Of a DNA stretch of 64,000 nt, positions 5,759 to 60,880 are shown piece by piece. Numbering within the stretch: the first letter of the stretch is position 1; each line of letters opens with the position of its first letter. The translations under genes were made by a program, and so were the position numbers. Source of the DNA: Candidatus Spongiisociaceae bacterium (lineage in GTDB: Bacteria; Actinomycetota; Acidimicrobiia; Spongiisociales; Spongiisociaceae); NCBI GenBank assembly GCA_965262915.1, contig OZ253564.1:3328001-3392000 (forward strand), written 5' to 3'. The notes under the pieces were generated by a model. That model did no database searches, was not told the DNA's origin, and saw only the letters and a list, made by a program, of their open reading frames with translations.

Positions 5759-6004
5759 GAGGGTGGTGTAAAACCCCTACACGGCCCGTCGACCGATAAC
5801 ATAATGCCTGTTCAGAGAAAGACGGGCCGTTGCTCCCCAACGTTTTGGAGGGTGCGCGGATAGGCGGACACGACTGCTCCTATCCGTAGACCCAACCCGG
5901 TTTCCCGCCGGAGAACCCCTGGTCAGGGTCGTGGACTCGTCAACCGTCGCGGTCACTGTCTCCCCACGTGAGCACCTATCCGCGCACCCTCTTGGACCAC
6001 CCTC
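5759..6004. mobile_element. MITE-like element (99 bp once the nested insert is removed)
   Basis: Ends GAGGGTGGTGTAAAAC / GTTTTGGACCACCCTC; closely similar to the reverse complement of 53053-53150. Confidence 0.8.
5848..5991. mobile_element. Nested 144-bp MITE
   Basis: Perfect 17-bp terminal IR GAGGGTGCGCGGATAGG / CCTATCCGCGCACCCTC; TTG repeated on both sides. Confidence 0.8.
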
Positions 6005-6008
6005 CTAT

Positions 6009-6105
6009 TAAGGTGGTTAAAACCCCCGGTTGGCCCGGCGATAGATGGCAGAAGGCCACGTCAGCGCACGAAGAGCCAACCATTTACCCGTATTCGAGCA
6101 CCCGC
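6009..6105. mobile_element. Degenerate member of the ~99-bp MITE family
   Basis: Begins TAAGGTGGTTAAAACCCC, ends GAGCACCCGC; internal GGTTGGC/GCCAACC stem; loop AAGGCCACGTCAG. Confidence 0.5.
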
Positions 6106-6385
6106 CTGGTGTCATCGACTCCGACCCGGGATATGAGGCCCCACCGGACACTTCCAGCGACAGGGGTCTAGACGCGGCGGCTCGATCGGTGTACCAATTG
6201 GAGACAGGGGATGAGGCTCATCACACCCGATGAGGTACGCCAGGCGCGGACGTGTCGGACATACGGGAAGGGCTCTGGGTCAACGCCGAAGCGTGATCGA
6301 CTTCCGCCAGGGAGGGCATGAAGATGAGGTACCTCGGCGAGCCGGTCCAGGCCGGGTCGCCGGGATGCGCGGGAAGGGGCCCGGA

Positions 6386-7120
6386 GTGACCGATCGAGAC
6401 TCCATCAGGTACGGCGACACCACCATCCACTACGAGATCCGCCGCAGCGAGCGCCGCAAGAAGACCGTAGAGGTCAAGGTGAGCCGGGATGGGGTGCGCG
6501 TCTACGCGCCCAGTGCCATGGACGACGAGAGCCTGAGGAAGTTCGTCCGTGAGAAGGCACATTGGATACTCGACCACCTGGCCCGGCTGGAGGAAATCGA
6601 ACCGGTTCGGTTCGTCAACGGTGAGACCCTCCCCTACCTGGGCTATGACATCCCGATGGTCTTCGATACCTGTGACGTTCGCTCACCGGAGGTCAGTTTC
6701 GATCAACGGTCCTTCAGGGTGATGGAACCTCCAGGTCTGGTAGGCGAGTCTCGTCTCGAACTTGTCGGCCGCGCCTTCCTCGGCTGGTACTGCGCCCGCG
6801 GGACGGAGTGGATACCCGCCGCCGTCGACCGTTGGTGGCCGGTACTCGGCCGCGGACCCAGATCCAGGGTCCTGATCCGCAACCAGCGTACGAGGTGGGC
6901 AAGTTGCGGAGTCGATGGAACGCTCCGTTTCAACTGGCGGGTCATGATGCTCGAACCGGGGCTGATCGATTACGTGGTCGTGCATGAACTCGCCCACCTG
7001 ACAGTGCGGGGCCACTCACGCGACTTCTGGGACGTGGTGCGCAAGGCCATGCCCGACATGGCGCAACGGCGGAAACGTCTCAAGGAGGTAGCCGTCGGCA
7101 TTCACATGCGGTTCACTTGA
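6386..7120 (+). CDS. M48/SprT-like metallopeptidase (YgjP/DUF45 type) associated with type I RM
   Basis: YEIRRSERRKKT N-terminus, QRTRWASC, FNWR, DYVVVHELAH..H zinc motif; usual position after hsdR. Confidence 0.9.
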   Translation: MTDRDSIRYGDTTIHYEIRRSERRKKTVEVKVSRDGVRVYAPSAMDDESLRKFVREKAHWILDHLARLEEIEPVRFVNGETLPYLGYDIPMVFDTCDVRSPEVSFDQRSFRVMEPPGLVGESRLELVGRAFLGWYCARGTEWIPAAVDRWWPVLGRGPRSRVLIRNQRTRWASCGVDGTLRFNWRVMMLEPGLIDYVVVHELAHLTVRGHSRDFWDVVRKAMPDMAQRRKRLKEVAVGIHMRFT

Positions 7121-7137
7121 TGTATACTGTGCTGTAT

Positions 7138-7356
7138 ATGCCGGCAACTCGCACACAGATCTACCTGACGAGCGAACAGCGAGAGGGAATCGACGCCATG
7201 ACCCGGATGACCGGCCTGTCGATGGCGGAGATCATCCGGCGGGCTGTCGATCTCTTCCTGGATCGGTACCCCGACCCGGCTCCCGCCCTGGACGCCACCT
7301 TCGGTGCTGTTCCCGACGCGGTCGCGCCCGGCAGGGACGAGTGGGAACGTGGCTGA
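7138..7356 (+). CDS. RHH/CopG antitoxin (VapB-like)
   Basis: RTQIYLTSEQ..SMAEIIRRAVD; overlaps downstream PIN gene. Confidence 0.85.
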   Translation: MPATRTQIYLTSEQREGIDAMTRMTGLSMAEIIRRAVDLFLDRYPDPAPALDATFGAVPDAVAPGRDEWERG

Positions 7357-7711
7357 TCTTCTCCTCGATACCGACATCTTCATCGACCACCTGAGAGGAG
7401 CCATGAGGCTCGAGCCCCTTCACCACAGGGTCCACTACTCGGTGATCACCAGGGCTGAGCTGTTTGCGGGCGCGGGCCGGAACGAGTCGCCGGTTCGAAT
7501 CCTGCTGGATCCGTTCCGGGAGTTGGGCATCGACCGGGCTGTGGCCCAACGGGCCGGCCGTATCCGACGTGAGTCGCGGATCAGGCTGCCCGATGCTCTG
7601 ATCGCAGCCACGGCCATGGAGCAAGGTCTCAACCTGGTGAGCCGCAATCGACGTGACTTCGGTCGAGTGAAGGATCTCGTGACCTACCCGGCCATACCGA
7701 ACCGGGGTTAG
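7349..7711 (+). CDS. vapC: PIN-domain toxin (VapC family)
   Basis: LLDTDIFID..ITRAEL..PDALIAATA..LVSRNRRDF. Confidence 0.9.
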   Translation: MADLLLDTDIFIDHLRGAMRLEPLHHRVHYSVITRAELFAGAGRNESPVRILLDPFRELGIDRAVAQRAGRIRRESRIRLPDALIAATAMEQGLNLVSRNRRDFGRVKDLVTYPAIPNRG

Positions 7712-8517
7712 CCGGAGACCAGTACCCGGTCGGACGGGTAGGCGGCCATGAAGGTCTGCACGGAGTCGGGTGACCAAGCGGGACCGAGGGGCAGTACCAG
7801 TTCCACCCGGGCTCTCCCCTCGCATGGCCGGCCCCGGCTCACCAGCAGCGTGGTGGTTCCTGCCGTGTGACGCAGCACGTAGCTGTACACGGTCGCGTAC
7901 AGGGCATGGTTGCAGACGCCGGTATCGCCCTGGTCGTGGCTGCCGAGCAGCGCGAAGATGTCTTCGGGCGACTCCGCTCGGTCGAGGCGGCGCTGGGCGG
8001 ATGCCATCCGGTCCTCCGTGGTCACCGTATCGTCGTTGCGGGGATGGATGCCCAACTCGGTGTGGTGGTTGGCTCGGGCGGTGGGCCGCCCGAGCCATAG
8101 CGCGGCCGTCCGCCGGCTCCGTACCTCAACCGCCGCCTGGCTGTCACCGTCGATGAGCACCAGGTTCCCCCACAGATACGGGCGGGCCGCCACCGCCTCC
8201 TGTACCGCCGCCACCCCCGACACCACATCGGTGCCCTCCCGCAGAGCGATCTCCACCAGGTCGTCGTAGTTGGCGTGGTCCGGGAGGGTGCGCACGTTGG
8301 AGTCACACGCCAGCAGCCCCGAGGAGTTGGCCCCGATCGAGAAACCCGAGAACCGGTCCAGCGCCGGGTCGGTACCCGCCCAGGTGGTGATGCCCTCCAC
8401 ACCGAACACATCCCGTTCCAGGACGATGCGGTCGTCGAAACTGGTGCGACCGAAGTCCTTGTTCTTGAACAGCATGAAGTCGTCCGGCCCGAGCCTGAGG
8501 AAACCGGTCGTGCACAT
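7708..8517 (-). CDS. Ntn-hydrolase (C45/choloylglycine-hydrolase-like) with N-terminal Cys
   Basis: Starts MCTTG..FKNKD; GANSSGL and RANH motifs. Confidence 0.7.
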   Translation of the reverse strand: MCTTGFLRLGPDDFMLFKNKDFGRTSFDDRIVLERDVFGVEGITTWAGTDPALDRFSGFSIGANSSGLLACDSNVRTLPDHANYDDLVEIALREGTDVVSGVAAVQEAVAARPYLWGNLVLIDGDSQAAVEVRSRRTAALWLGRPTARANHHTELGIHPRNDDTVTTEDRMASAQRRLDRAESPEDIFALLGSHDQGDTGVCNHALYATVYSYVLRHTAGTTTLLVSRGRPCEGRARVELVLPLGPAWSPDSVQTFMAAYPSDRVLVSG

Positions 8518-8590
8518 CAGGATCCTCCCGCACCGCGTGGCCGCCCCCGATACTACGCGGTCCTCGCCGGGTTCGGTAAGGTTGCCCCCC

Positions 8591-9814: not shown

Positions 9815-9831
9815 ACTGCCGTCCGCTTCAT
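9755..9831 (-). pseudogene. Truncated RHH/CopG antitoxin N-terminus
   Basis: MKRTAVYFPEELKQRLEEVAVRNR then runs into the antisense of the M20 gene; upstream TGCCATATC direct repeat may be an operator. Confidence 0.6.
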
Positions 9832-9897
9832 GCCATATCGTCTGCCATATCTCTGTATGGTTGCGAAACGGCCGTCGTACAGCCTCCTCCGCAGGTC

Positions 9898-10683
9898 TCA
9901 ACTCTCCGGGACGTCGTAGGTTTGGGCTGTGAGCGCCCCGTCGACGATCAGGTTGACCCCGCTGACGTACTTGGCGGCGTCGGATGCCAGATACAGGAAG
10001 GCTTCGGCTATGTCATCGTCGCCCGCAAGCCGGTTGGCAGGCACCACGGGGAAACCGTGCATGCGCCACTTCTCCATGAGTTCCTCACCGACCAGGTCGA
10101 CCGACTGCTGGGTGTCGGCGGGACCGGGGCTGACGCAATTGGCCCGGATCCCGTAAGGGGCGCATTCGACCGCTATCGCCCTCGCCAGTGACACCAGCGC
10201 CGCCTTGGACACGCAGTATGCGGTGAAACCCCGGCCGTGACCCAGCGCCACGATCGACGCGGTGAAGAGGATCACTCCCCCGCCCGTCTTCTTCATGGCC
10301 TGGGCAGCTTCGCGCGCCAGCACGAAATATGCATCGAGGTTGACCGACAGGATCCGTCTCCAATCGGAGGTTGTCATGTCGATGAAGGGCGCGTCGACCC
10401 ACGCCCCGGCGTTGGAGACCAGCACATCGAGTTTGGGATCGATGGCCAGGGCCTGCGCCATGGCCTCGGCGCAGTTGTCCATGTCCCCCATGTCCAGGCA
10501 GATCTTGTGGGGGACCGCTCCACGCGCCTCGATCGACGGGGCGGCGCCATCGAGGCGTTCCTGGTTGTAGTCGACCATGTACACGTGGTGGGCGCCCTCC
10601 TCGGCGAACCGCTGGGCGGTACGCCTCCCGAAGCCGCTCCCGGCACCGGTCACGAACACGTTCTTGCCTTCGAACCGCCTCAT
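9898..10683 (-). CDS. SDR family oxidoreductase
   Basis: TGAGSGFG, SNAG, YCVSK, GIRANCVSPG, VDG. Confidence 0.93.
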   Translation of the reverse strand: MRRFEGKNVFVTGAGSGFGRRTAQRFAEEGAHHVYMVDYNQERLDGAAPSIEARGAVPHKICLDMGDMDNCAEAMAQALAIDPKLDVLVSNAGAWVDAPFIDMTTSDWRRILSVNLDAYFVLAREAAQAMKKTGGGVILFTASIVALGHGRGFTAYCVSKAALVSLARAIAVECAPYGIRANCVSPGPADTQQSVDLVGEELMEKWRMHGFPVVPANRLAGDDDIAEAFLYLASDAAKYVSGVNLIVDGALTAQTYDVPES

Positions 10684-10685
10684 GT

Positions 10686-19680: not shown

Positions 19681-19910
19681 AGACCTGTTGACGTACCGCG
19701 TCCACGGCTGCACCGCCAGGCCGGCAAGCCTGCTCCCCAACTTCGGAGACCCCTTCCCGGGAACACGCCCCGTGTCCCCGTCGTTCGACTCTCCGGTTGT
19801 CGATAGACGGACGACGGGTCGAATAACACGTGTGTAAATACCACTGGTGTGACTATCGGCGGTGTATCCTTGCGGTGTCTGGTACCGAAGGATCGTCGGC
19901 GAGAAGTGAC

Positions 19911-22900
19911 ATGAGGAAAAGCGTTGCTCCGCGGGGGGCAACCCCAGCGTGGGGTTCCGGCAGAGTACATGCTCGCTGCGCCGCGATGTCTTTCATAGCG
20001 GTCGTCTTGACCTTCGTCATGGTATGGAGCCAGCCGGCAGCGGCGCTGCTACCGTCGTCCGGCGAGTCTCCGGCGTCGACAAGCCAGGCAACCATGCCGG
20101 ACACGGATTCCGTGATCTGGTCAGGTTCCCTCTCGCCCTCCATCAGCCCGAGTCCGGTCGCGGTGCTCGCCGGTGGCCACCAGAGGCTGCTCTCGTTCAC
20201 GGCGACAGTGCCTCCCGTGGCCACCTCGCATCCGCCTCGGCCGGACTGGATCATTGTTATGAGCATCACCGGCACCTCGGCAACGCCGAACGTGGGTCTT
20301 GCCGGCGGAAGCGGGGGTTCCCACACCATATACCTCCGCTACAAAGAGGTGGGTGATACAAACTGGAACTCAACCATATTTCAAGCTGACACCAGACAAA
20401 GCCATGCCACCGTACCCATCGTAATGACGGGACTGACCCCCAACACGAACTACGAGATACAGGTGTCCTTCGACAGCACCGATTGGAGCCCCTTCGAGAA
20501 GGAAAGGTTTACAACCAAGAGTGCCTCCGCCACCCTACCAATAGTTAGCTCTGTATGGGGTGACGAGATGAGCGCCTGCTCGGCGAGGATATATATCACG
20601 TTTTCCAATCCCGACCGTGACAGCTTGTTGGTCTACTTCCGGTGGAAGCAGAATGTGATGGGGGCTACTTGGAGCGCCATAGGAAATTATCCCAGCGGCG
20701 GCTCTGGCGCCAACTCCCAGGTAGGTCTTTCCCCCTCTACTACCTATGTGGCCCAAGCAACCATGGATCATAACTTCGTGAACGGCATCGTAACATCTGA
20801 ACCCTTCACCACCACCGCTGCCCCGTTTGTGAGCAAAGTAGTGGCCGACCCTGTAGGGAACACCACGGCCACGTTGACTGCGACACGGGAAAACTTCTGT
20901 ATTTCCTTCCCGACATATCACTTTCGTTACAGAGTCAAGGGAACAGAGACGTGGATCACGGGGGTGGCTAATGATAATAATCGTACCCATCTCACCGGAC
21001 TGACCCCCCTCACTACATATGAAGTCGAAGTGTCATTCCACAAGAACTTTGCTCACCCATTCAAGATCGAATTCAGAACGGGAACTCCTGACCCTCCAGT
21101 TCCAAGCCTGGCCGCAATCAACCTGGTGGATGCCCAACGTACGGAACTGACCGTGGTCGTGAAAGTAGCCGATGCGGAGAATGCGGAGGTGGATCAGAAG
21201 GTGCACCTTCTCTACCAGAATCTGAGGGCGAATACGTTCAGCACCCTGCAAAGTACGCCGATAACGGATTCAGAGGCCGAGTTCCCACTCTCTGGCCTTA
21301 TATCGGGTACCAGATACGGAATCTGGGCATCTCTGGATGACTCCCTTCTCACCGACACATTGACCCCGGAAACCAAACCGGACGAGGTGCTGTCCGCCGA
21401 GTTCCCCACGATCCCACCCGGCGTGATAGGTGTATCCCCACAGACGACGGGTCAGACGACTGCGCGGCTTACGGTGACGATCGCTGAGCCGAACGGTCAG
21501 GATCAGACAGTCTACGCGCAGTACCGCACGACAAGCCCGGAGGGCAACTGGGTGGACGCCTACAAGACTCCTGACGAGCCTCCTACTACCAAGACTGACA
21601 CCGCTATCCTAAACCTGACGGGTCTCATGTCTGACACGGAGTACGAGGCGCGGGCGTCGCTTGACAGTTCTTTTCCGGATGACGAGACGGTTGTGTCCGG
21701 CACGTTCCGTACTTTGCCGCCCGGTGTGACCGGGTTGCGTGTACATGATGTCAAACAGACGAGCGCCAAGGTCACCGTCGAGTTGAGTGCTGCGAATGAG
21801 AGTACTCTCTATCTGATCTATGCACCTATCTGTGGTGTATGGGGTTCTCTTGAAGAGCCCGTTTCCACGGGTCAGGGATCCGTCGAGTTCACGTTGGAGA
21901 ACCTCATGTCCGGGACGGAGTATGAGGTTCGTATTTCCTATGATTCTCGATTGAAGGACGTAGTCGGCCAGCAGCTAGTCCCGCCGGATGGTTGTGGGAG
22001 CGGGGAAGGAAAGTCGACTAAGGGGTCCGTGGTCAAGGGCGATGGCCAAGGGTCTGTGCAAAAGGATGATCCGGTAGACTTCAACGAGCTTACCTTCTCT
22101 ACGCTTCCGCCCAGCGTCGTCAGTGTCGCAGTCGATGATCAGACTGTCAGCCAGACCGAGGCAACCGTCACGGTAACGGTCAAGGAACCCAACGGCACCG
22201 CCCAAGTACATATCCGTTACAGCACAGCCAGCAACTTCCCGAGCGGGTCCACCGAGACCGAGTCCAAGGTGGTCCCGACCACCACCAACACCAACGGCGA
22301 GGACACGATCGACTTTGTCCTAACCGGGCTCAGTGCAAGCAGCTTCTACTACGTCGAGGCATCCTATGAATCCGCCTTCCCGGATTCCGACGCCACCGAA
22401 AGCACCGACTTCACCACCAAACCACCAAGCCCGGCGGTCTCTTCGGTCGAGGTTCTCGACAGCGGTAGCAATGAGATCACCAAGACGAGTGCAAAGGCGC
22501 GAGTTCACGTCACCAACCCCGACGGCGCCGCAGAGGTGCATATCCGTTACAGCACCGATTCGAGCTTCGGGCAGGGCTCCACGATCGTCACGGGCTCCGC
22601 CACTCCTGGGACCGGTGCCACCTACGCTGATTTCACGTTCTCCAGCCTGACTTCGGGTACGACCTACTACGTGCAGGCTTCGTACGACAACACCTTCCCG
22701 GCGACCGACGCCACCAAGACCACCCACTTCATTACCGATCCCCCCGCCCTCACCGACGTGACAGCCAGCGACCTCACCCAGACCGGCGCTACGGTCACCG
22801 TCACGGTTGACAAACCCAACGACACGTCCGTCCGGCTCCACTACATGTCCGCAGGCGGAAGCTGGAGCACGACCGATCTCAACAACGCCGTGTTCGACGC

Positions 22901-25900
22901 GAACGCAGACACCTACACCTTCGATCTCACAGGACTCATCTCCGGAACCGAATACACGGTGTACGCGTCCTACGACAGCACCCCACCATCCACCGAAGCC
23001 ACGCTCGCGGCAGCCCAAAGCGACACCTTCACCACTGTCGATCCGAATATCACCGATGTCGAAATCGACGACCAGAGCATCACCCAGACGGCGGCAACTG
23101 TCTCGGTGACCGTCGACGAACCCAACAGCACCCCTGTACAACTGCACTACAAGAAGACCTCGGAGTCGACCTGGAGCGGTCCCATGTCCGCGACTGCCGA
23201 TCCGAACACCAAGAAGGCGACGTTCGCCCTTGACGATCTCACCTCCGGGACCGGGTACACGGTGTTCGCGTCCTACGACCGCACCCCGCCGTCGGCCGGG
23301 GCCACGTTGGCTGATGAGCAGACCGACACGTTCATGACTGATCCTCCGACTGTTGAGAAGGTCGAGGCGACGGACAAGACTGACACCACGGCGGAGATCA
23401 CGGTCACCATCGCCGAACCGAATGGGGCGATCCAGACGGTGAGTGTCCGTTATCAGACGACCCCGTCGGGTAACTGGGTCACTATCCAGCCGGATCCCAC
23501 GACTGACCCCACCACTGACCACGCCACAGCCGTCGTAAACCTGGGCAGCCTCACGGCCAATACCCAGTACAGGGTGGAGGCGACCCTTTCCGGGAGCTTT
23601 GCCCAGGGGGTCAAGTCGACCACGTTCACGACTAACTCGTCTGGTCCTGGCGTCTCGAAGGTGGTGATGTCCGGCGAGACGCAGACGGGCGCCACTGCCA
23701 CCATCACCATCGCCAACGTGACCGCCGCGACCGCCGTTTACCTGCAATACCGGGAACCCGGATCGAATACTTGGAGTGACCCGCCCCAGGAGGGAGCCAG
23801 TACCACCGCTACTCCTGGCACTGCGGTGATCAAGCTGACCGGACTCACATCCGGAACCCAATACGAGGTGCAAGCGTCCCTCGACAACACCTTCGAGGCC
23901 GGCGTCCAGTCCGCCACCTTCACCACCGAACCCCCCAGTGCGTCCGCCGTGGACGTGATCGAGAAGAGCGCCAGATCGGCCAAGGTGCGAGTGGCGGTGA
24001 GTGAACCCAACGGTAAGACGACACTGTTCCTGCGTTATGGCTCCGGCGGTAACTGGAAAAGGGATTTCGCTTCGAATGTGAGTACCGAAGACGTTGAATT
24101 CAATCTCATCGGGCTCGAACCCGACAGCACGTATCAGGTGGAGGCGTCGTTCGACAGCACTTTCCCTCAAGACGCAACCGCTACAGGTACTGTCCATACT
24201 CCGCATCTCGATGCGCCGACGGTCGACGTGCCTGGCAAGGGCCAGACCACGGCCACGGTAGGCATCACGGTCTCGTCGCCGGATGATCAGGATGGGGTGG
24301 TCTTCTACCGCCATCGGGAAACCCCCGCGGGTTCGTGGAGCAGTATCCGGGCGGCTGTGGTCACCGGTGGATCGGCCACCGCGACCCTGTCGGGCCTTAC
24401 GTCCGATACGGAGCACACGGTGGAAGCCTCGCTGAGCCGAAGCTTCCCGCCCAACGCCACCGGGTCGTTCACCTTCACCACCGAGCCCCCGGGTGTCGAC
24501 GAGGTGGAGGTAACGGACAAGACAGAGACAACGGCGGAGGTTACCGTCACGATTTCGGCGCCCAACGGTGAGTCCCAGACCGTGTCTTTGGAGTACGACA
24601 CCAGCGTCAATACCGATCAGGGCACCTGGGGCAACAGCGAGCCGGGCTCGAGTAGCGACGACGAGGCGACCATCAACCTCAACGGGCTGTTGTCGGGTAT
24701 CCAGTACACGGTGCGGGCGTCTCTGACTGACGATTTCAGCGGAGAGACCCGTACGGCCACGTTCACGACCTCGTCCACCAGCCCGCACGTCGCCCGTGTC
24801 GAGGTTCTCGACGAGGATATCGAACAGACCGAGGCTACCGCAACCATCAGCATCGCCAACGTGACCGCAGCGACCAACGTTTACCTGCGTTACCGGACCA
24901 GCCCGTCGGGAGCCTGGAGCGACCCCATATTGGACGGCGCCAGCACCGCCACCGATCCCGGGACGGCCACCATCAAGATGACCGGACTCACCTCCGGCAC
25001 CCAATATCAGGTGCAAGCCTCCCTCAACAACAGTTTCACAGAGGGAGTCCAGTCGGCGACTTTCCGCACCCTGAGTCCCGTCGTCTCCGGGGTCAGCGTT
25101 ACAGACGTGACCCGAAGCGAGGCGACCGTCACGGTGGACGTCACCGCCCCCAACGGCGACCCGGTGTTCCTGCAGTACCGGACCGGCAGCAATGAATGGA
25201 TCGGCCACTTCGCCAATGTCGGCACCGAGGATTCCTCGGTCGACTTCAGTCTCCGAGGGCTCACCTCCGGCACGACCTACACCGTGCAGGCATCCTACGA
25301 CAGCGCCTTCATCACGGGCGTCGAGCCCGCCACCTTCACCACCCAGTCGGCCCCGCGTCCTCGTCCGACCGGTGGCGGCGGCAACACGGGCGGCGGCAAC
25401 ACGGGCGGGGGAGGCAACGGAGGGAACAAGAATCAACCGCCCGAGTTCATGGAAGGCACCAGGACAGTCCGTTCAGTGATTGAGAACACCCCGTCCGGCG
25501 AGGACGTCGGTAAACCGATCCCGGCCGACGATCCCGAGAACGACGACCTGACCTATTCCCTGGTCGGCCCGGACGCCGGCGATTTCGACGTTGAGGACGA
25601 CTCGGGCCAGTTGCTGACCAGATCCCCCCTCGACTTCGAGACCAAGACCCACTTCTTAGTGACCGTCTCCGTGCGGGACGGCGTGGACAGCGAAGGCGAG
25701 GACGACACCCGGCGCGACGACCAGATCCTGGTCGCGATCCTCGTGACCGACGAGGACGAAACGCCCAACCAGCCGCCCGCACTCACCGAGACCCCGCGAA
25801 CTGTTCGCATGGTGGCGGAGAACACCCGGTCAGGTGTCGCGGTGGGTGATCCCATCGAAGCGACCGATCCCGAAGGCGACGCCTTGACCTACTCACTCAA

Positions 25901-38111: not shown

Positions 38112-38189
38112 ACGCTGCTCCAACCACTGACTGACACTGACCTGCATATTCTAGCAGAATATGGCAAAGAAACTAAGGAATCAGGACAC
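37020..38189 (-). mobile_element. IS630-family insertion sequence
   Basis: Terminal IR GTGTCCTGATTC / GAATCAGGACAC flanked by TA (within CTAG) on both sides. Confidence 0.92.
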
Positions 38190-38192
38190 TAG

Positions 38193-38291
38193 GAGAGTGC
38201 TGAGCAATCCACCCGCGGCCCGCCACTCAACCGTAAAATGCCTGGTCGGTGAGTGGCGAGCCTTCAGCAATCGTCATTGGTCAGCATTCTC
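38193..38291. mobile_element. 99-bp MITE-family element
   Basis: CTAG on both sides; IR GAGAGTGCTGAGCAAT / ATTGGTCAGCATTCTC; first 18 nt match the IS end at 3992 in 17 positions. Confidence 0.85.
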
Positions 38292-38410
38292 CTAGGACGC
38301 CGGTCCTCTGATCTTTGATCCGAACTCTGAACTGCTAACAGTTTATAACTTATAGACACCACTAGTCTATTTCGTCATATATCTATCAAAGCGTTACTAG
38401 CATCCTACCG

Positions 38411-44825: not shown

Positions 44826-44835
44826 GCGGTTGCTC

Positions 44836-48016: not shown

Positions 48017-48748
48017 ATGCCTCCTGTGAGGACACACGGAACACCGGGGCGACTTTCGGGCCTCCCGATCTCCCTTGTCTTGCTCCTGCTCGTACTCGCA
48101 TCGGCCTGTGGGGATCCGGACACCCCTGCCGCAGAACAAACGACCGTACCCGCGACCACCACCTCTGACGCGCCTCCTCCGAGCACAGCCACCACCATGA
48201 CCACCACTATCGGGACCACCACTACCGCTGCCCCCACCACTACCGCCGCCCCCACCACTACCGCTGCTCCCGTCCCGGCGATCGATCCCCCTCCGGTGCT
48301 GCGTGAGGACACCCCCCCGCTGGTGGACATCGACGGCTGGCTGGCCTCGGATGTCACCTCGTTGGAGGAGCTGAGAGGCTCGGTGGTGGTGGTCGAGTTC
48401 TGGACCTTCGGTTGCTACAACTGCAAGAACCGCATCCCCTACACCCAGGACCTGTACGCCAACTACAAGGACCACGGTCTGGAGATAGTCGGCATCCACT
48501 CCCCCGAGTTCGCGTACGAACGTGAGGTGGCCAACATCGAGGAAGCGATGGTCGATCTCGGCGTTACGTGGCCGGTCGTGCTGGACACCGACCGGCAGAC
48601 CTTCCGTGAGTGGCAGGGACGCCCCGCCTACTGGCCTCGCACCTATGTCCTGGACCGTCAGGGCCGGATCCGGTTCGACCACATCGGCGAGGGCGCCTAC
48701 GACGAACTGTTCGAGGTAGTCGACTACCTGCTGACCGAAAGCGCGTGA
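48017..48748 (+). CDS. Thioredoxin-like (redoxin, DipZ-type) lipoprotein
   Basis: Lipobox LASAC, Thr-rich linker, EFWTFGCYNC, GIHSPEF.YER, YWP, HIGEGAY. Confidence 0.9.
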   Translation: MPPVRTHGTPGRLSGLPISLVLLLLVLASACGDPDTPAAEQTTVPATTTSDAPPPSTATTMTTTIGTTTTAAPTTTAAPTTTAAPVPAIDPPPVLREDTPPLVDIDGWLASDVTSLEELRGSVVVVEFWTFGCYNCKNRIPYTQDLYANYKDHGLEIVGIHSPEFAYEREVANIEEAMVDLGVTWPVVLDTDRQTFREWQGRPAYWPRTYVLDRQGRIRFDHIGEGAYDELFEVVDYLLTESA

Positions 48749-49344
48749 GCCTGGTCGGCGAGGCCATCCGCGCCGGTCTTCAACCCTGTTCCTACTCGCT
48801 CCTCATCCTTGCTCTGGTCGTCCTCGGTCTGCGGGGCCGGAGAGCCCGGCTCCCAGGTCTCGGGGTTTACTACGCGGCTACCACCCTCTTCGCGTGGATA
48901 CCCTTCGTCGGCGTCAACCCGCTGCTGGACGGTAGGATCGCCGGAACCATCGCCCTGCCGGCCGGACTGCTGCTTGCCGGCTGGAGAGCGACCGGGAGGG
49001 ACAACTCCCCCGCCGTTGGACTTGCCGGGGTGGCTGTGGTCGGCGCATTCGCCGGGGCTACATGGCTTCCGTGCGTCGGCCGGGAACTGGGTGCGGTCCT
49101 GACCGCCGCCACCACCGACCCCTGGCCGGGCCTGGTGGGTCTGGCCGTGTACCTGTTGGGAGCCATGTGGATAGCGCTGGTTGCGACCGTCATCGGTGAC
49201 TACGTTCCCCCGATCCGCCGGGCTTTGGAGAAGCAATCGGTGATCAACGGCTTCAGGGTCGTGGGAGGAGCCATCGTTCTCACAGTCGCCGTCGACCTGT
49301 ATCCCCTCCTGCTGAGCCACCTGGCGCGCCTGTCATCCCTATGA
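48745..49344 (+). CDS. CcdA/DsbD-beta-like membrane electron transporter
   Basis: Hydrophobic; two PC motifs (QPCS, WLPCVG); GTGA-coupled to the redoxin. Confidence 0.7.
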   Translation: MSLVGEAIRAGLQPCSYSLLILALVVLGLRGRRARLPGLGVYYAATTLFAWIPFVGVNPLLDGRIAGTIALPAGLLLAGWRATGRDNSPAVGLAGVAVVGAFAGATWLPCVGRELGAVLTAATTDPWPGLVGLAVYLLGAMWIALVATVIGDYVPPIRRALEKQSVINGFRVVGGAIVLTVAVDLYPLLLSHLARLSSL

Positions 49345-49361
49345 CCGCGAGGGCCGTCCAG

Positions 49362-49460
49362 GAGGGTGCCAAGAAACGGTGATATCGGTTGGCCCGCCGT
49401 CCGCTGACCTGGCATTCTGTCATCGACCGTCGGGCCAACGGGGGGTTTCTCAGCACCCTC
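49362..49460. mobile_element. 99-bp MITE-family element
   Basis: IR GAGGGTGCCAAGAAAC / GTTTCTCAGCACCCTC; internal GTTGGCCCG/CGGGCCAAC stem. Confidence 0.75.
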
Positions 49461-49643
49461 CATGAGGTCGCGGCGCCCGAAGCCGTCTCGTATCGTTCCC
49501 GATCCTGAACGCGTGGCCCTGTCTCGCCTCGCATCCCATCCGAAGGAACAACCTGCGTTCCGTGTCGGGGGACCTCGGTAAACTCACCGAGGCGGTGAGT
49601 GGACCGCGCCGCCTCGTCGGCCAAGAGCGGAGCAAGACGCGAC

Positions 49644-50036
49644 ATGGACGTGACAATCACCGCCAACGCGCTGGCCAGATATGTGCCGGTGCTACGAGCT
49701 TCGGATGACGACTTTCGTCTGCGGGTGGTTCTGCACGATTTCGGGATGGTCTTCCAGCACGCCACAACCCTGGACCGCTCGTTTCTCGTCTCGGAGGAAC
49801 CTGAGCTGTTCGATCCCCGATGGGACGCTTTCCTCGCCGCCTATACCGAGCATCTGTGCTACCACGCCGCCATCCCCACCCCGGCCTGGGTCTTCACAGC
49901 CGACCGTCACCTCCCCCGCTTCTGGTACCCGGGGCGACGTTTCCCCCGCGAGCGGGCGGCGACGATCCTCACGACGCCCGCGGCGTTCGAGGTCCACGGG
50001 ATATGGTTTCCGGAGCGGGAACTCGAGGTTGTCTAG
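49644..50036 (+). CDS. Hypothetical protein, putative partner of the downstream nucleotidyltransferase
   Basis: EEP..DPRWDAFLAA..EHL..PAWV..TP.AF..HG; stop overlaps the next start. Confidence 0.7.
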   Translation: MDVTITANALARYVPVLRASDDDFRLRVVLHDFGMVFQHATTLDRSFLVSEEPELFDPRWDAFLAAYTEHLCYHAAIPTPAWVFTADRHLPRFWYPGRRFPRERAATILTTPAAFEVHGIWFPERELEVV

Positions 50037-50626
50037 TGGAGCCGCTGACCGAGGCTGAGATCCGTGCCGCTCTGGAAGAACTCGCCGAACGGCTATCCGC
50101 AAGGCGTGCGCAAGGACGGCTCTACGTCGCCGGCGGGGCCGCCATGGCCTTGGCGTACGACAGTGACAAGCTGACGCGTGACATAGACGCGGCGATCATC
50201 GAGGGTCATGGCGCTGTCATCGAGGCCGCACGCGAGATTGCCCTCTCCCGGCAATGGCCGAGCACGTGGATCAACGAGCAGGCAACTCCCTACATGCCGA
50301 CCGTCCCGGACCGGCGTGGTCTGGTCGTATTCGACCATCCGGCGCTGAAAGTGGTCGTCGCCTCCCGGGAACACATGCTGGCCATGAAAGTGAGGGCGGC
50401 ACGATCTTCGGACGTCGCCGATACGCGGCGCCTCCTCCAGGAGACAGGCCTATCCGGGGCGGACGAGGTCGAGGCCCTCGTAGAGTCGGTCTTCCCCGGA
50501 GAATGCCTCGGCGGACGGCAGCGACGATGGCTCGAAGATCTTCTGAATGCCTCGGCGGACGGCAGCGACGGACATACCAACCCACCCGTACGAGGGTGCT
50601 CTAGGGGAATGCCCGTCGTCCGCTGA
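50036..50626 (+). CDS. DUF6036/AbiEii-like nucleotidyltransferase
   Basis: LYVAGGAAMALAY..TRDID, WINE, MLAMKV.AAR..DVAD; C-terminus runs into a MITE. Confidence 0.8.
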   Translation: MEPLTEAEIRAALEELAERLSARRAQGRLYVAGGAAMALAYDSDKLTRDIDAAIIEGHGAVIEAAREIALSRQWPSTWINEQATPYMPTVPDRRGLVVFDHPALKVVVASREHMLAMKVRAARSSDVADTRRLLQETGLSGADEVEALVESVFPGECLGGRQRRWLEDLLNASADGSDGHTNPPVRGCSRGMPVVR

Positions 50627-50679
50627 CATGACGTACTGTCCTTGACCGTCGCTCCCCCCGGGGGGTGTTGACCACCCTC
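50592..50679. mobile_element. Degenerate 88-bp MITE-family element
   Basis: Begins GAGGGTGCT, ends ACCACCCTC followed by CTAG. Confidence 0.5.
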
Positions 50680-51655: not shown

Positions 51656-51870
51656 GCTGGAACCCACGACGTGCCTGGCCTTTCTCGGTAACGGGGCTCC
51701 GGTCCCGCTAAGAACCCGACACGGTCGAAGCCCCGCCTGGTGGTCTGTCTGGAAAACAACTTGCCGTGCTCTGCTTGCCAGCGACGGCCCCTCGCTGCCG
51801 GCGCGTACCACGCCGCCATTTCACGGCAAAGACCACTACTTTGCTGACGGCGGTAACCATACTCGCGGCC

Positions 51871-53049
51871 ATGACAGTCATCGGCATTGCGGTCGGCCCC
51901 CATCCCCGCCTCCCCACTACCGACCCCTTCACCATCGAGTCGTTGACGGTCGACGTCTACAGAGCCCCCGTCGCCCGACCGGTACGCACCGCGTTCGGGA
52001 CGATGACGGACCGGCCCGCCGTCGTCGTCACGGTGCTGGGCGGGGACGGAACCCGCGGCTACGGGGAGGTGTGGTGCAACTTCCCGGCGCCCGCCGCCGG
52101 ATACCGCGCTCGCCTGATCACGTCCGTCCTGGCGCCCGAGACCGTAGGACGGTCGTGGCCCGATCCAAGAACGGTGTTCGACCATCTGACGGCGCGAACC
52201 GGCACCCTGGCGCTCCAGGCCGGGGAACCGGGACCGTTCTCCCAGTCCATCGCCGGGATCGATATCGCGCTCTGGGACATGGTGGCCCGCCGGGCCGGGC
52301 AACCGCTCTGGCGCATGCTGGGAGGGCAGGGCGACGGACGCGTACCGGCTTACGCCAGCGGGATCGGGCCGGACCGCGCGCCGGCCCAGGCCCTCGAAGC
52401 GGAGGCGGCGGGTCACCGGGCCTTCAAACTCAAGGTCGGTTCCGACGAGGAGCGCGACCTGGCCAGCCTCGAGGCGTTACGCTGGGATCTCGACCCCGAC
52501 GCGATGATCGCCGTCGACGCGAACCAGGCATGGTCCCCCGAGGAGGCGGGTCGGAGAAGCCGAGCACTCGCTCCATACGGCCCGGCGTGGCTGGAGGAGC
52601 CGATCCGGGCCGACCGTGACGCCGGCGGCTGGGAGCGGCTCTCGGACATCTCCCCCATCCCTCTGGCGGCCGGCGAGAACATGTACGGGGAGGCAGCCTT
52701 CGACCGGGCGATCAGGCAGCGAGCGCTGGAGGTGATCCAGCCCGACGCCGCCAAGTGGGGCGGTATCTCAGGCTGCCTGCCCGTAGCCAGGCGGATCGTC
52801 GACTCCGGCAAGCGCTACTGCCCCCACTACCTGGGCGGAGGCATCGGACTGCTGGCGTCCGCCCACCTGCTGGCCGCCGCCGGGGGCGACGGGTTGCTCG
52901 AGGTCGACTGCAACCCCAACCCGCTGCGCGAGGGGTTGTCCCAGCCCTTCCCCCGCCTCGTCGACGGACACTTCATTCTGAGCGATGCTCCTGGACTGGG
53001 GGCAGCACCCGACGATGCGGTATCCCTGCTGAAGGTCGACTCGGCATAG
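51871..53049 (+). CDS. Mandelate racemase/muconate-lactonizing enzyme family protein
   Basis: GYGEVWCNFP, IDIALWD, FKLKVG, VDANQ, WLEEP, GEN, QPD..KWGG. Confidence 0.92.
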   Translation: MTVIGIAVGPHPRLPTTDPFTIESLTVDVYRAPVARPVRTAFGTMTDRPAVVVTVLGGDGTRGYGEVWCNFPAPAAGYRARLITSVLAPETVGRSWPDPRTVFDHLTARTGTLALQAGEPGPFSQSIAGIDIALWDMVARRAGQPLWRMLGGQGDGRVPAYASGIGPDRAPAQALEAEAAGHRAFKLKVGSDEERDLASLEALRWDLDPDAMIAVDANQAWSPEEAGRRSRALAPYGPAWLEEPIRADRDAGGWERLSDISPIPLAAGENMYGEAAFDRAIRQRALEVIQPDAAKWGGISGCLPVARRIVDSGKRYCPHYLGGGIGLLASAHLLAAAGGDGLLEVDCNPNPLREGLSQPFPRLVDGHFILSDAPGLGAAPDDAVSLLKVDSA

Positions 53050-53052
53050 TAG

Positions 53053-53150
53053 GAGGGTGCTGCAAAACGGTGGGTAGCAACGGCCCGTCTTCCTCTGAAC
53101 AGGCATTATGTCATCGGGCGACGGGCCGTGAAGGGTTTTGCCCCACCCTC
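53053..53150. mobile_element. 98-bp MITE-family element
   Basis: IR GAGGGTGCTGCAAAAC / GTTTTGCCCCACCCTC; internal ACGGCCCGTC/GACGGGCCGT stem; inverted sibling of 5759-6004. Confidence 0.85.
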
Positions 53151-53227
53151 CTAGGAACCATCTCCCCCACCTCGACGGATCGAGGGTCCGGCGCGCACCC
53201 ATGGCGGCGGCCGGATGAGGAAACGCG

Positions 53228-55894: not shown

Positions 55895-55928
55895 GCCCCC
55901 TGTAGCACGCTCCCGGTGGCCTGATCAG

Positions 55929-57912: not shown

Positions 57913-58907
57913 TGGCCGGGCAGATGGCGGCCATGCGGAGGATGACCTTCGGACAGGCCACCGTCGACGCCATGCGGTTCGCGATGCGTGAGGACGAACG
58001 GGTCATAGTCCTCGGCGAGGACATCAGCTGGGGAGGCAACTTCGGGCAGTTCAGAGGCCTGGTCGACGAGTTCGGACCGGACCGGGTGATCGATATGCCC
58101 ATCTCGGAGGCGATCATCATGGCGGTCAGCCTGGGCGCCGCGGTGACCGGGCTCCGTCCCGTGGCATCGATGAGCTTCGTCGAGTTCACCCTCGGCGCCA
58201 TGGACGAGATCGTCAACCAGACTTCGAAGTTCCGTTACATGTTCGGAGGCCAGGTCTCCGTTCCCCTGGTGTTGCGGGCGTCGGACGGGATCCTCCGATC
58301 CTCGGCCGGACAGCACTCCTCCAGCCTGGAAGGCCTGTTCACCCACCTGCCCGGCCTCAAAGTCGTCGCACCTTCCAACCCGGCCGATGCCAAGGGCCTG
58401 CTTCGGGCCGCCATCGCCGACGACGACCCGGTCATCTACCTGGAGAACAAGCGGATCACCGCCAAGCGGGGACCGACCCCCGTGGGAGACCATGTGGTGC
58501 CGCTCGGCTCGGCCGCACTCCGCCGTCGAGGGTCCGACCTCACGATCGTCACCTACTCGGTGATGGCCCTCCATGCCGGGGCAGCCTGCGCCCGACTGGC
58601 CGAGGAGGGTATCGAGGCCGAACTGATCGACCTGCGGTCGCTGGTCCCGCTGGATCTCGAACCGGTGCTGGAGTCGGTGCGCAAGACCGGCCGGGTGGTG
58701 GTGGCGCATGAGGCCTGGGAGTTCGGAGGCTTCGGCGCCGAGCTGGCGGCCTCCATCACCGCAGAGGCCTTCGATGATCTGGTTGCGGCGCCGGTGCGGG
58801 TGGGAGCGGCTTCGGCACCCATTCCCTTCAGTCCCCCGCTCGAACGGGCGGTGGTACCCGGGCCGGAGGAAATCGTCGACGCGGCCCGGAAGCTGATGAC
58901 GGCCTGA
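57912..58907 (+). CDS. TPP-dependent dehydrogenase E1 beta subunit
   Basis: GEDI, DMPISE, GLRPV, QHS, PGLKVV, IDLRSL.PLD, KTGR. Confidence 0.93.
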   Translation: MAGQMAAMRRMTFGQATVDAMRFAMREDERVIVLGEDISWGGNFGQFRGLVDEFGPDRVIDMPISEAIIMAVSLGAAVTGLRPVASMSFVEFTLGAMDEIVNQTSKFRYMFGGQVSVPLVLRASDGILRSSAGQHSSSLEGLFTHLPGLKVVAPSNPADAKGLLRAAIADDDPVIYLENKRITAKRGPTPVGDHVVPLGSAALRRRGSDLTIVTYSVMALHAGAACARLAEEGIEAELIDLRSLVPLDLEPVLESVRKTGRVVVAHEAWEFGGFGAELAASITAEAFDDLVAAPVRVGAASAPIPFSPPLERAVVPGPEEIVDAARKLMTA

Positions 58908-59726
58908 TCACTCCTCAGGCGGGTCGCTCTCCAACCACTCGACGGAACGAGGCCCGTGCATGCGGTGGAAAGCGATGGCCAGGTCCGACGAGCCCGAGCC
59001 CGGTCCGCTGTGAGGCCGACCGGGGAGCCGGAAGGTGTAGGTACCGGGCCTGCACCGGTACGCCTCCTCCCCGTGTGTCCCGTCCTCGTGGGCCTCTCCG
59101 GGAAGGTCGAGACGCTCGGTGACCGTGAACTCTCCTTCGAGCACTAAGGACTCCTCCGCCGATTCGTGCACATGCCACGGCCCGTCCTCGTTGGACCAGT
59201 CCCGGGCGCCCGACAGCCAGATGTCTCCGCTCGGGCCGGTGGCCAAAGGACGGACGAAGCGGCCCGGGAGTTCGGGCACCGCAGCCCAGGGCGCACCGGT
59301 GGCGAGGCCCACCAGAGGCTGGGAGAGCATCCCCCCGGCGGATGTGTCGTAACGGATCGGGGCCGATGTCATCACCAACGCAAGGGTCGGGACCCGGGCC
59401 CGCACTCCGCTTATCACCTGCCCGGCCCGCACAGCCACGTAGTCGTACTGCCCGATCCGCTCCCCCGCCACCGCCAACTCCCCCCTGATCACGAACAGTT
59501 CCAGATCGGCGGTGAAGGCGCCGACGACACCGGATCCCCATCCGGCGTGCATCCGGGCCAGCCTGGTGGCCGGTCCCGAAAGGTCCTTCGACAGGATGCG
59601 CGCTTCGATCCGGCCCTCGCAGCCGGCAATGGTCATGGTCCGGCTCGGTAGGTCGCCCTCTGCTATTGCCCGCAGAGATTGGCGACGGCGGTCGATAAGG
59701 GCCGGATCGGTGATCGGGCGGCTCAC
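58908..59726 (-). CDS. Tandem cupin-like (DUF4437/ChrR-like) protein
   Basis: ELFVIRGEL and WHVHE..EE..VLEG..G.YTFR.PG.PH segments. Confidence 0.6.
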   Translation of the reverse strand: MSRPITDPALIDRRRQSLRAIAEGDLPSRTMTIAGCEGRIEARILSKDLSGPATRLARMHAGWGSGVVGAFTADLELFVIRGELAVAGERIGQYDYVAVRAGQVISGVRARVPTLALVMTSAPIRYDTSAGGMLSQPLVGLATGAPWAAVPELPGRFVRPLATGPSGDIWLSGARDWSNEDGPWHVHESAEESLVLEGEFTVTERLDLPGEAHEDGTHGEEAYRCRPGTYTFRLPGRPHSGPGSGSSDLAIAFHRMHGPRSVEWLESDPPEE

Positions 59727-60147
59727 CGGGCTCGACCCCCGCTACCCGCTCCCTGACCAGCGCCCATATGGTGCGTTCCTTCCCGTCGTGTTCCAGGACC
59801 CTGCCCGAAGTGTCCGGTCCGCAAAGGTAGCCGCCGATTCGCCTGTCCCGGTGGCCGGTCTACCACAACCGCCCTGGGCTGGTATCGGGCCACCACCACG
59901 ATTCCCGTCACGGCCTCCGAGCGGCCCGAGTGCCTCCCGTAATGGATGTCCAACCTCAGCGTCCGGACCCTCTGCCAGACCCGCCGGGGAAGATCCAGGC
60001 CCGCTCGCCGGTGAGAATGAGCGGCCGCAGGTCGAGAAGGCGGGGATTCCATGTCCGCAAGAGCCGCGCCCCGATGACTCAGAACGGGAACGGGTCCACG
60101 TGCGGCCTTTGATATCACGGGGTATCCTAAGACTCAAGGGGTAACCG

Positions 60148-60369
60148 TTGACCGACATCCTGATTCGCGACGTTCCCGACGATGTACTCGCAGCCATAGA
60201 AGCCAACGCGATGCGAGCCGGCCTCTCCCGGGCCGAGTACCTGCGGCGGACGCTCGAACGAGAACGCACGGGCACAGCCGGCGACATCACCGTGGAGTCT
60301 CTCCGCCGCTTCGGTGAAACATTCGCCGACCTCGCTGAACCTAGCGTGATGCGGTCGGCGTGGTCGTGA
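60148..60369 (+). CDS. vapB: VapB/FitA-like RHH antitoxin
   Basis: [43 protein letters not shown]. Confidence 0.88.
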
Positions 60370-60782
60370 CCGCCTGGCTGATTGACAAATCGGCACTCGT
60401 CCGGCTCGGTTCGAGTCCCGAGGCGGCGGAGTGGGTGTTGAGAATACGGCGCGGGCTCGTCCGGATCTCGACGCTGACCCGGCTGGAGATCGGGTTTTCG
60501 GCCCGCTCAGCCCAAGACCTCCGACGGAGCTTCGCCGAGCCGCCCCTCAGCGCTATGCCGGTCGAGTATCTCACCCCCGCCGTCGAGGACCGCGCGGTTG
60601 CGGTGCAGCATGTTCTAGCGAGAGCAGGCCATCATCGGGCCCCTTCGATCCCGGACCTGCTGATCTCTGCGACCGCCGAACTCTCCTAGCTCACCGTCCT
60701 GCACGTCGACAAGGACTTCGAGCTCATCGCGGATATCACCGGCCAACCCGTCGAGCGCCTGAGGCTCCCGGGAGGGTGCTGA
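60366..60782 (+). pseudogene. vapC: VapC PIN toxin with in-frame TAG at 60687
   Basis: [54 protein letters not shown]. Confidence 0.88.
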
Positions 60783-60880
60783 AAACCGAATCCTGCGGGG
60801 TTCGCCGGTTGGCGAACTACCTGGTCTGAGAGCGTCGGCTACCGTGCGAAGCCCTTTGTACGGGGTTTTTCAGCAGCCTC
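60772..60880. mobile_element. 109-bp MITE-family element
   Basis: CCGG on both sides; IR GAGGGTGCTGAAAA / TTTTCAGCAGCCTC. Confidence 0.82.

Follow-up and report, generated by a model that had tools for sequence, protein, structure and literature searches.

Dispersed through a 64,000-nucleotide stretch of the genome of a Candidatus Spongiisociaceae bacterium (GenBank assembly GCA_965262915.1, contig OZ253564.1, positions 3,328,001 to 3,392,000; hereafter the window) are short palindromic elements whose ends resemble those of an insertion sequence (IS) of the IS1182 family and whose interiors fold into a hairpin with a recurrent loop motif, raising the question of whether they are mobile DNA, regulatory RNA, or both. 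The comparisons described here indicate that they probably form a superfamily of miniature inverted-repeat transposable elements, or MITEs, with IS1182-type ends and a TA target, in which the central hairpin and its loop would aid mobilisation in cis and be selected in the copies that act as masters.

Elements in the window

The window has a G+C content of 65% and holds six copies of a family of about 99 bp (A, C, D, E, F, and G), one element of a sister family (H), and one further element (B), together with an IS1182-family IS.

3991..5755, minus strand: IS1182-family insertion sequence, 1765 bp, with TA flanks at 3989-3990 and 5756-5757
5758..6005, plus strand: copy A, subfamily 1, 99 bp (GAGGGTG to CACCCTC) without the nested element B, flanks TA/TA
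5848..5991, plus strand: element B, 144 bp, with the same 7-nt termini as copy A and CCTGGTCAG at its exact centre
6009..6105, plus strand: copy C, subfamily 2a, both ends degenerate (TAAGGTG...CACCCGC)
38192..38292, plus strand: copy D, subfamily 3, ends matching the IS end in 17/18 nt, flanks TA/TA within CTAG, adjoining an IS630 element
49361..49461, minus strand: copy E, subfamily 2a, the best hairpin among the window copies (DNA z-score -6.3)
50592..50679, minus strand: copy F, subfamily 2a, 88 bp, degenerate
53052..53151, minus strand: copy G, subfamily 1, flanks TA/TA
60771..60881, plus strand: element H, 109 bp, of a sister family of 107-110 bp, flanks CG/CG, CCTGGTCTG placed 49 nt in from the left end

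The initial annotation, made from this sequence alone, had located all eight small elements, and reading the sequence confirms them, with the true termini GGAGGGTG...CACCCTCC lying one base further out on each side. It had also counted the eight as a single family of about 99 bp; six of them are, and H and B represent separate sister families. The pattern GAGGGTG-N60-90-CACCCTC occurs three times in the window against 0.03 expected, a number that none of 100 dinucleotide-preserving shuffles reached. An nhmmer profile built from the six copies finds exactly A, C, D, E, F, and G in the window, with E-values of 9e-26 to 2.5e-16, and picks up two weak matches, one being H (E = 0.012) and the other the initial 20 nt of the IS1182-family IS. 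An unfiltered covariance model run over the whole window found no copies of about 99 bp beyond the six and matched H weakly, and nhmmer searches with B and H returned no other copy of either in the window.

Copy A records an insertion. Element B is nested within it with a TT/TTG duplication, and once B and one TTG are removed, copy A measures 99 nt, as first described, and aligns end to end with the other copies. An uninterrupted homologue of copy A occurs in one of the outside loci introduced below (L013), and the B-less copy A aligns with it over the full length. This nesting with its duplication is direct evidence that an insertion occurred, and it is the one case here that bears on filled versus empty sites. 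The IS1182-family IS, copy A with B inside it, and copy C form a tandem cluster, in which the left TA of copy A is shared with the IS.

Copies in other genomes

Genome contigs were scanned with one pattern based on the terminal repeats only (GGAGGGTGNNNNRAAAC-N55-85-CACCCTCC, with 10-kb flanks), which yielded 43 loci comprising 744,589 nt; this census is incomplete, so that the copy numbers given outside the window are minima. In the 43 loci nhmmer gave 20 matches to the 99-bp family, of which 19 are distinct, so that there are at least 19 outside copies, in 13 loci of five metagenome-assembled genomes (MAGs): RHO1_bin_3 and APA_bin_98 (both labelled "bacterium"), two Acidimicrobiia, and one Candidatus Spongiisociaceae. 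Besides the window, the host range of the copies found is that of five sponge-associated Acidimicrobiia-type MAGs. Twelve of the outside copies had been picked by the search pattern, and the remaining seven lay unselected in the flanks. The H family gained at least 8 further copies in the loci, bringing it to 9 in total. A second nhmmer round and a covariance model, the latter being the kind of survey that the initial annotation had envisaged, were run over the window and the 43 loci and added no 99-bp copies to these 25.

The remaining content of the scan is heterogeneous: of the 43 loci, 23 (from Marinobacter, Bacteroidales, and other taxa) contain unrelated palindromes that merely fit the pattern. 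Megablast detected no overlap between the window and the 43 loci, and tblastn with 36 window proteins gave only distant, paralogue-level matches to them, at 28-48% identity. Clustering like that around copy A recurs outside the window: three copies lie within 2.3 kb in L030 (9752-12076) and two in L027 (8127-10100), belonging to different subfamilies.

Two further palindromes with ends of this type came out of the scan. Four Marinobacter genomes (L025, L026, L039, and L041, at about 10001-10089 or 7803-7891) carry an 89-nt palindromic element with the termini GGAGGGTG...CACCCTCC, whose flanks look alike and whose interior is unrelated; this could be a distinct small element that has ends of the same type. 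A 100-nt fold-back in another Acidimicrobiia MAG (L024, 10001-10100) has 20-nt terminal repeats starting with GGAGGGTG and a TA in front of them, lacks the CCTGGTC motif described below, and may be a further family on the same ends.

Anatomy and subfamilies

All 25 copies of the 99-bp family align over their whole length (MAFFT), and their interiors, initially described as differing in sequence, are therefore homologous. They fall into three subfamilies: subfamily 1 comprises A, G, and seven locus copies; subfamily 2, which has several branches, comprises E, C, F, and nine locus copies; and subfamily 3 comprises D and three locus copies. The ends of subfamily 3 are those of the IS, agreeing in 18/18 nt in L030:11978 and L016:217 and in 17/18 nt in D, as noticed from the outset for the copy at 38193 and the end of the IS at 3992. 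The constant length first reported also stands, at 95-102 nt in 24 of the 25 copies, F with 88 nt being the other one. With the H family (107-110 nt, n = 9) and B (144 nt, n = 1) there are three size classes, none of which codes for protein. What B and H have in common with the 99-bp family is only the 7-8-nt termini, extended in H to longer inverted repeats that are the same as those of the 99-bp family, and the central motif. These common ends and the common motif nevertheless tie the three size classes into one superfamily.

The terminal inverted repeats of the 99-bp family measure 16 nt (GGAGGGTGNNNNRAAAC), with an inverted-repeat search giving arms of 17-25 nt, and the outer helix pairs in 86-88% of cells. 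Most copies, whether folded as DNA or as RNA, form a 16-bp outer stem from these repeats, followed by an asymmetric internal loop and a 15-19-bp imperfect inner stem that is closed by a terminal loop of about 10 nt. The DNA folding z-scores are -5.4 for D and -3.7 for G, and -1.6 and -1.3 for the degenerate copies C and F. The H elements have a long-range stem, GGGGTTCGC/GCGAACCCC. The stems named by the initial annotation fold, and its loop motif is found at the positions it gave. In the form CCTGGTC(A/T)G (with at most one mismatch), or more fully (A)CCTGGTC(A/T)G, this motif is central in 17 of the 25 copies that make up the 99-bp family, in 5 of 9 H elements, and in B. Its distance from the left end is 46-51 nt in both the 99-bp family and the H family, and in B it occupies the exact centre. 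By inspection, most of the 35 elements carry CCWGG, a sequence of the Dcm/EcoRII type, inside the motif. The G+C content of the elements ranges from 0.50 to 0.69.

Target site and stop codons

When the elements are read as GGAGGGTG...CACCCTCC, 20 of 36 have the same dinucleotide on both flanks, TA in 18 and CG in 2. Read as GAGGGTG...CACCCTC, the elements have equal flanking 4-mers in 8 of 36 cases, all of which are palindromes (CTAG or CCGG) that fit both readings. Twelve cases, for example GTAG...CTAG and CTAG...CTAA, fit the TA reading alone, and the element at L027:8127 has A and T in place of G and C as its terminal bases, still complementary to each other and with TA/TA outside them. These cases indicate that the duplication is TA, preferably within CTAG, and that the adjacent G or C belongs to the element itself, which replaces the CTAG or CCGG duplications proposed at first. 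Some flanks show other arrangements: at L036:10002 and L019:3371 they are complements and not direct repeats (TG...CA and CA...TG), extending the palindrome by two bases, and those of copy E (CA...AT) are neither direct repeats nor complementary.

In 11 of 35 elements the TAG (in one case TAA) formed by the duplication and the terminal base is the stop codon of an open reading frame (ORF), counting ORFs of at least 80 codons with a G+C content at third codon positions above 0.7. Seven of the 11 belong to the 99-bp family and three to the H family, and the remaining one is the IS1182-family IS, which is placed exactly in the TAG stop of hsdR (896-3991), the stop being rebuilt from the duplicated TA and the first G of the IS. 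Also in the window, copy G begins 3 nt past the TAG stop of an enolase-superfamily gene (51766-53049), copy E lies 17 nt past the ORF 48610-49344, and the ORF 49820-50626 extends 35 nt inside copy F. On a cruder gene map, 25 of 25 copies are intergenic and 9 of 25 sit 0-3 nt from a stop codon.

A simple rule accounts for this pile-up on stop codons and for elements standing side by side. Since the element starts with G, TA followed by G gives TAG, and landing in a TAG stop is harmless, so that copies pile up at gene ends; since every inserted end recreates C-TA-G, new targets arise beside old copies, which fits the IS-A(B)-C cluster and those in L030 and L027. The location at gene 3' ends to which the initial annotation drew attention is thus real, and it follows from the TA/TAG target and not from a function at these sites.

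Covariation of the inner stem

On the MAFFT alignment, 79.7% of paired cells are complementary, compared with 73.6±0.7 in shuffles. Changes on both sides of a pair affect 20 of 35 pairs (12.7±2.0 in shuffles) and 63 cells (27.0±4.4), and neither value was reached in 500 shuffles. The covariation score is 0.243, against 0.150±0.010 for shuffled alignments and 0.035-0.094 when the pairing partners are slid by 1-3 columns. The corresponding number of pairs on a model-fitted alignment, which takes in one H copy and leaves out F, is 22 of 35.

As kinship alone can beat shuffles, we added a tree-aware null, in which columns evolve independently along the FastTree tree with the parsimony number of changes of each column (1000 runs). 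Outer-helix covariation is to be expected, because both ends of a transposon must fit one transposase. For the inner helix, the simulation yields 4.97±1.68 compensated pairs and 9.9±4.8 compensated cells; observed are 14 of 19 pairs and 38 cells, and 0 of 1000 runs reached either value. The share of paired cells is unexceptional under this null, at 74.4% against 69.9±3.9, and was reached in 13% of the runs. The inner stem genuinely covaries, as had been suspected from a few window copies, and it does so around a conserved loop. The consensus sequences of the clades agree with each other at 0.80 and 0.78 in the two terminal repeats and at 0.74 in the loop, which is therefore fixed almost as firmly as the terminal repeats, compared with 0.57 and 0.68 in the arms of the stem and 0.48 and 0.43 in the spacers. 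For the nine H copies, RNAalifold preferred a local hairpin to the long-range GGGGTTCGC/GCGAACCCC pairing, and 0 pairs were compensated.

Probable constraint in master copies

The same alignment allows change between clades to be separated from change within them, and thereby a constraint on master copies from a function of each insertion; this comparison is usable on other RNA-like repeat families. Relative to the clade consensus, individual copies have changed at 0.106 of positions in the terminal repeats, 0.103 in the loop, 0.127 in the arms, and 0.165 in the spacers, which is close to a uniform distribution (chi-square p = 0.04). Of the single changes in the arms within clades, 48 break a pair and 18 keep one, and double changes number 9 against 5.1 expected, with 5 of the 9 keeping the pair. 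Inserted copies thus decay uncompensated, and the compensatory differences lie mainly between the founders of subfamilies, which together suggest a requirement for transposition that is exerted in the active masters.

A different explanation is that the elements are structured RNA modules serving the host, as 3'-end stabilisers, terminators, or RNase targets past stop codons. Strong hairpins stand 0-3 nt past stops in 9 of 25 copies and exactly on the stop in 7 of 25, the hairpin forms in either orientation, and transcripts of bacterial MITEs are reported, in excerpts of two publications (PMC2229807, PMC2649163), to act on neighbouring mRNAs. We nevertheless regard this explanation as very unlikely. 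Relative to the gene whose stop is abutted, 5 copies are in sense and 5 in antisense orientation, and in the window A, C, and D are oriented opposite to E, F, and G. The inner helix contains 36 G·U cells and 31 A·C cells, the latter being G·U on the other strand, so that neither strand is favoured as the transcript. Single copies are unprotected, most arm changes breaking pairs as described above, and the position at gene ends is already accounted for by the TA/TAG target. Rfam gave 0 matches at the gathering score over the window, and below that threshold the elements drew only microRNA-hairpin hits, at 18.7-24.2 bits against cut-offs of 72-90. The half of the initial proposal that called the elements a non-autonomous mobile system with IS1182-type ends is accordingly retained, and the half that considered a regulatory RNA is not supported, as orientation, the balance of G·U and A·C, decay, and the Rfam search show no sign of one.

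Two specific roles in transcription were considered and rejected. The elements are not terminators, since no run of T trails the stems. The loop contains a TGn-NANNNT sequence (columns 42-50) resembling an extended -10 box, and a promoter at this position was rejected because the elements face toward and away from genes about equally often (roughly 10:11) and because H lacks the hexamer.

The covariation could also be functionless. The founders of the subfamilies might have been near-perfect palindromes, produced for example by fold-back or template switching, or quasi-palindromes might be corrected in replication, with the loop merely inherited. It agrees with this that most compensatory differences lie between and not within clades, that copies decay freely after insertion with inherited mismatches tolerated, and that there is no strand or orientation signal. 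Plain descent, however, would erode loop and spacers alike, whereas the loop is kept at 0.74 across clades, close to the terminal repeats (0.78-0.80) and far from the spacers (0.43-0.48); the motif keeps its distance from the left end in H and its central place in B despite differing arms; and ongoing template-switch repair predicts compensated changes within clades, where only 5 kept doubles face 48 broken singles. On balance we consider a functionless origin of the covariation unlikely.

We therefore return to the reading of the hairpin and loop as an aid to mobilisation that is selected in master copies. An IS1182-family transposase would act in trans on the 16-nt terminal repeats. Insertion takes place at TA, preferably within CTAG, with the TA duplicated. 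The TA and the G of the element restore a TAG, which makes insertion into stop codons harmless, and new copies land beside old ones. Between the terminal repeats, the 15-19-bp imperfect stem and the loop with (A)CCTGGTC(A/T)G may bring together ends that are only about 100 bp apart, through a bend, cruciform extrusion, or contact with a host factor or the transposase. The stems of the subfamilies have diverged by compensatory changes with the loop motif kept across the three size classes. The constraint would rest on a few active master copies, and inserted copies, which decay without compensation, would have no host-serving function at each site.

A bolder and more specific version of this proposal is doubtful: the central hairpin and its loop, with CCWGG in the motif, might be a dedicated cis module that very short IS1182-type MITEs require for their mobilisation, a sequence-defined "transposition enhancer" in a bacterial MITE. 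The DNA would be bent or extruded there by a host nucleoid protein, by a reader of the methyltransferase type, or by the transposase, so that ends about 100 bp apart could pair, and the arms of the module would have co-evolved in the three size classes. If the central module does aid transposition, this would be relevant to the way in which DDE transposases bring together two ends spaced by less than the persistence length of DNA.

Several observations weigh against the reading of a selected, IS1182-mobilised hairpin. Applied to the MAFFT alignment of the 25 copies, RNAalifold returned no consensus structure, and the structure that was counted was for this reason drawn by hand from single-sequence folds, which favours it over the slid controls. 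Counting further pair types gives only a marginal signal on the MAFFT alignment, at 51 compared with 46.5 and with 26 of 500 shuffles getting as high; for the model-fitted alignment 3 of 500 do so. The tree and the parsimony counts of the tree-aware null come from the same 106 columns that it tests. Some mismatches have been inherited and have spread, namely a G·G at pair 28-74 in L043, L004, and L040 (three genomes) and an A·G at pair 32-68 across subfamily 2, which indicates that perfect pairing is not required and that any requirement is loose. On the side of the transposase, the search gave no intact member of this family, the window copy being split in two frames and tblastn for the transposase finding none in the 0.74 Mb of fetched loci. 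The interior of the elements shares nothing with the window IS past the first 18 nt, so that the partnership with the IS is read from end similarity and target only.

Candidate transposases

The ends of the IS1182-family IS are GGAGGGTGCTGAGCAATCC on the low-coordinate side and GGGGACTGCTGATTTAGTC (read inward) on the other. Its transposase is encoded in two overlapping minus-strand ORFs, with matches to the Pfam domains DUF772, DDE_Tnp_1, and DDE_Tnp_1_6 and to the NCBIfam IS1182 model (NF033551), the cut-off of which is 270 bits.

4653..5726, minus strand: N-terminal piece of the transposase, 357-aa ORF, residues 30-224 matching IS1182 model positions 11-208 with 118.8 bits
4151..4903, minus strand: C-terminal DDE piece of the transposase, 250-aa ORF in another frame, matching IS1182 model positions 244-487 with 188.8 bits

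Relatives encode the transposase in a single ORF of 1548-1590 nt, indicating that the gene in the window is frameshifted. The nearest annotated relatives show 41-49% identity among the 15 listed of 190 matching plasmid records. Two of them had their ends examined, the Rhodococcus pDF02 IS and ISMgi3, and both read GAGACTGCTGAA...TTCAGCAGTCTC with CTAG on either side. The sequence GGAG-NN-TGCTGA is common to the MITE ends, ISMgi3, and the Rhodococcus pDF02 IS, and together with the CTAG flanks it suggests that both the end type and the target of the MITEs fit the IS1182 family, to which the transposase in the window also belongs. The IS in the window and the two relatives are all flanked by CTAG, so that the TA and the 4-bp readings of the duplication are indistinguishable there.

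Past the terminal repeat, the interior of the elements derives neither from the window IS nor from its two relatives, and the elements, in agreement with the initial annotation, are therefore not simple deletion derivatives of the IS in the window. The IS was also considered as the source of the loop motif and rejected, since the ends of the IS and its two relatives show no common subterminal motif. Taken as sequences, these comparisons support non-autonomous mobile elements with IS1182-type ends, and the IS in the window is presumed to represent the type of the autonomous partner.

The window contains a second IS, a complete-looking IS630-family element (37019-38190) with a 376-aa transposase ORF (264 bits against NF033545) and perfect 12-13-nt terminal repeats GTGTCCTGATTC. 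It is inserted at TA within CTAG, directly adjoins copy D, and occurs as a single copy without derived small elements in the window.

An IS630-family transposase might thus be thought to move the MITEs, as IS630-type elements likewise insert at TA within CTAG, this one stands next to copy D, and the pneumococcal RUP MITE has been assigned to IS630-Spn1 by similar ends and a TA target, according to an excerpt of PMC2229807. The terminal repeat GTGTCCTGATTC is, however, unrelated to the MITE repeat GGAGGGTGCTGA, and the IS630 element has no second copy in the window. The MITE ends instead agree with those of the IS1182-family IS in 17-18 of 18 nt and resemble those of its two actinobacterial relatives, themselves flanked by CTAG, which makes mobilisation by an IS630-family transposase extremely improbable and leaves an IS1182-family transposase as the presumed partner.

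Comparison with known elements

The elements are small (all below about 300 bp) and non-coding, with terminal inverted repeats, a target duplication, and multiple dispersed copies. Bacterial MITEs, as characterised in excerpts of a review (Delihas 2008, PMC2229807), are shorter than 200 bp, with terminal repeats, TA at the ends, a duplicated target, a fold into long stem-loops, and in some cases a DNA motif inside. The window elements resemble them in length, in being non-coding, in their inverted repeats, TA duplication, stem-loop, and internal motif, and in being intergenic and often lying just downstream of genes; unlike the MITEs described in these excerpts, which are A+T-rich, they are G+C-rich. 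Because the TA target, the long stem-loop, and the internal motif are known hallmarks of MITEs, the sequences argue for a new superfamily within a known kind, and not for the wholly undescribed kind of system first envisaged. We found no sequence relatives among named families in Rfam, in the plasmid collection (with copy E as query), or in the literature, ISfinder not being covered by these searches. What this adds for annotation is a so far unnamed MITE superfamily, found in genomes of the Acidimicrobiia type that are uncultured and sponge-associated, and the IS family that is likely its partner.

MITEs derived from IS1182-family elements are already on record: tabulated extracts list ISMac2-derived MITEs of 160-169 bp in Methanosarcina acetivorans (PMC3852290), and give a 4-bp direct repeat for ISPse1 and an ISMac2-derived MITE (PMC3281130, PMC3852290). 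In contrast to the 4-bp repeat in these tables, the 12 non-palindromic cases described above fit TA, with the G or C belonging to the element. Unlike IS-derived MITEs, the elements studied here do not take their interior from the IS copy in the window.

Comparable in architecture are the Correia or NEMIS elements of Neisseria, which in the available extracts (PMC2229807, PMC2649163) are about 100-155 bp long, come in two size classes, and combine TA termini and long terminal repeats with a conserved core. The same extracts mention a central integration host factor (IHF) site in the 155-bp form that "might facilitate transposition", with no dedicated transposase known. The likeness to the window elements, set side by side from these descriptions, is one of architecture only. 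Host and composition differ, as the sequence apparently does, and we identified no IHF-type site in the window elements. The CIR repeats of Caulobacter and Brucella form a long hairpin, the terminal loop of which carries a GANTC methyltransferase site (PMC2229807, in excerpt). They are similar in presenting a short conserved motif at a hairpin loop, which here includes CCWGG in most copies, and differ in lacking terminal inverted repeats.

No Y1_Tnp domain was detected when 60 window ORFs were compared with Pfam, although all but 6 of these are at least 200 aa long and a short RAYT could escape. REP and BIME sequences are dispersed, G+C-rich extragenic palindromes, the stems of which vary by compensatory changes and which are mobilised by RAYT. 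The window elements are likewise dispersed G+C-rich palindromes with compensatory stem changes; unlike REP, which has neither terminal repeats nor a TA duplication and goes with a Y1 transposase, they have both the repeats and the duplication.

Neighbouring genes

Around the repeat cluster, an hsdS-like ORF (7-903) lies upstream of the type I restriction gene hsdR, and a gene for a YgjP-like metallopeptidase (6230-7120) follows past the cluster. An AMP-binding (acyl-CoA synthetase-like) gene at 41235-42865 is broken across two frames near 41535-41540, with positions 6-62 of the Pfam AMP-binding domain in one ORF and positions 65-384 in the other, which reflects a frameshift, a pseudogene, or a sequencing error. 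A giant ORF of 2467 aa at 19830-27233 encodes fn3, cadherin, and S-layer-homology domains, and the G+C content falls to 0.57 at 20-22 kb, compared with about 0.65 elsewhere in the window.

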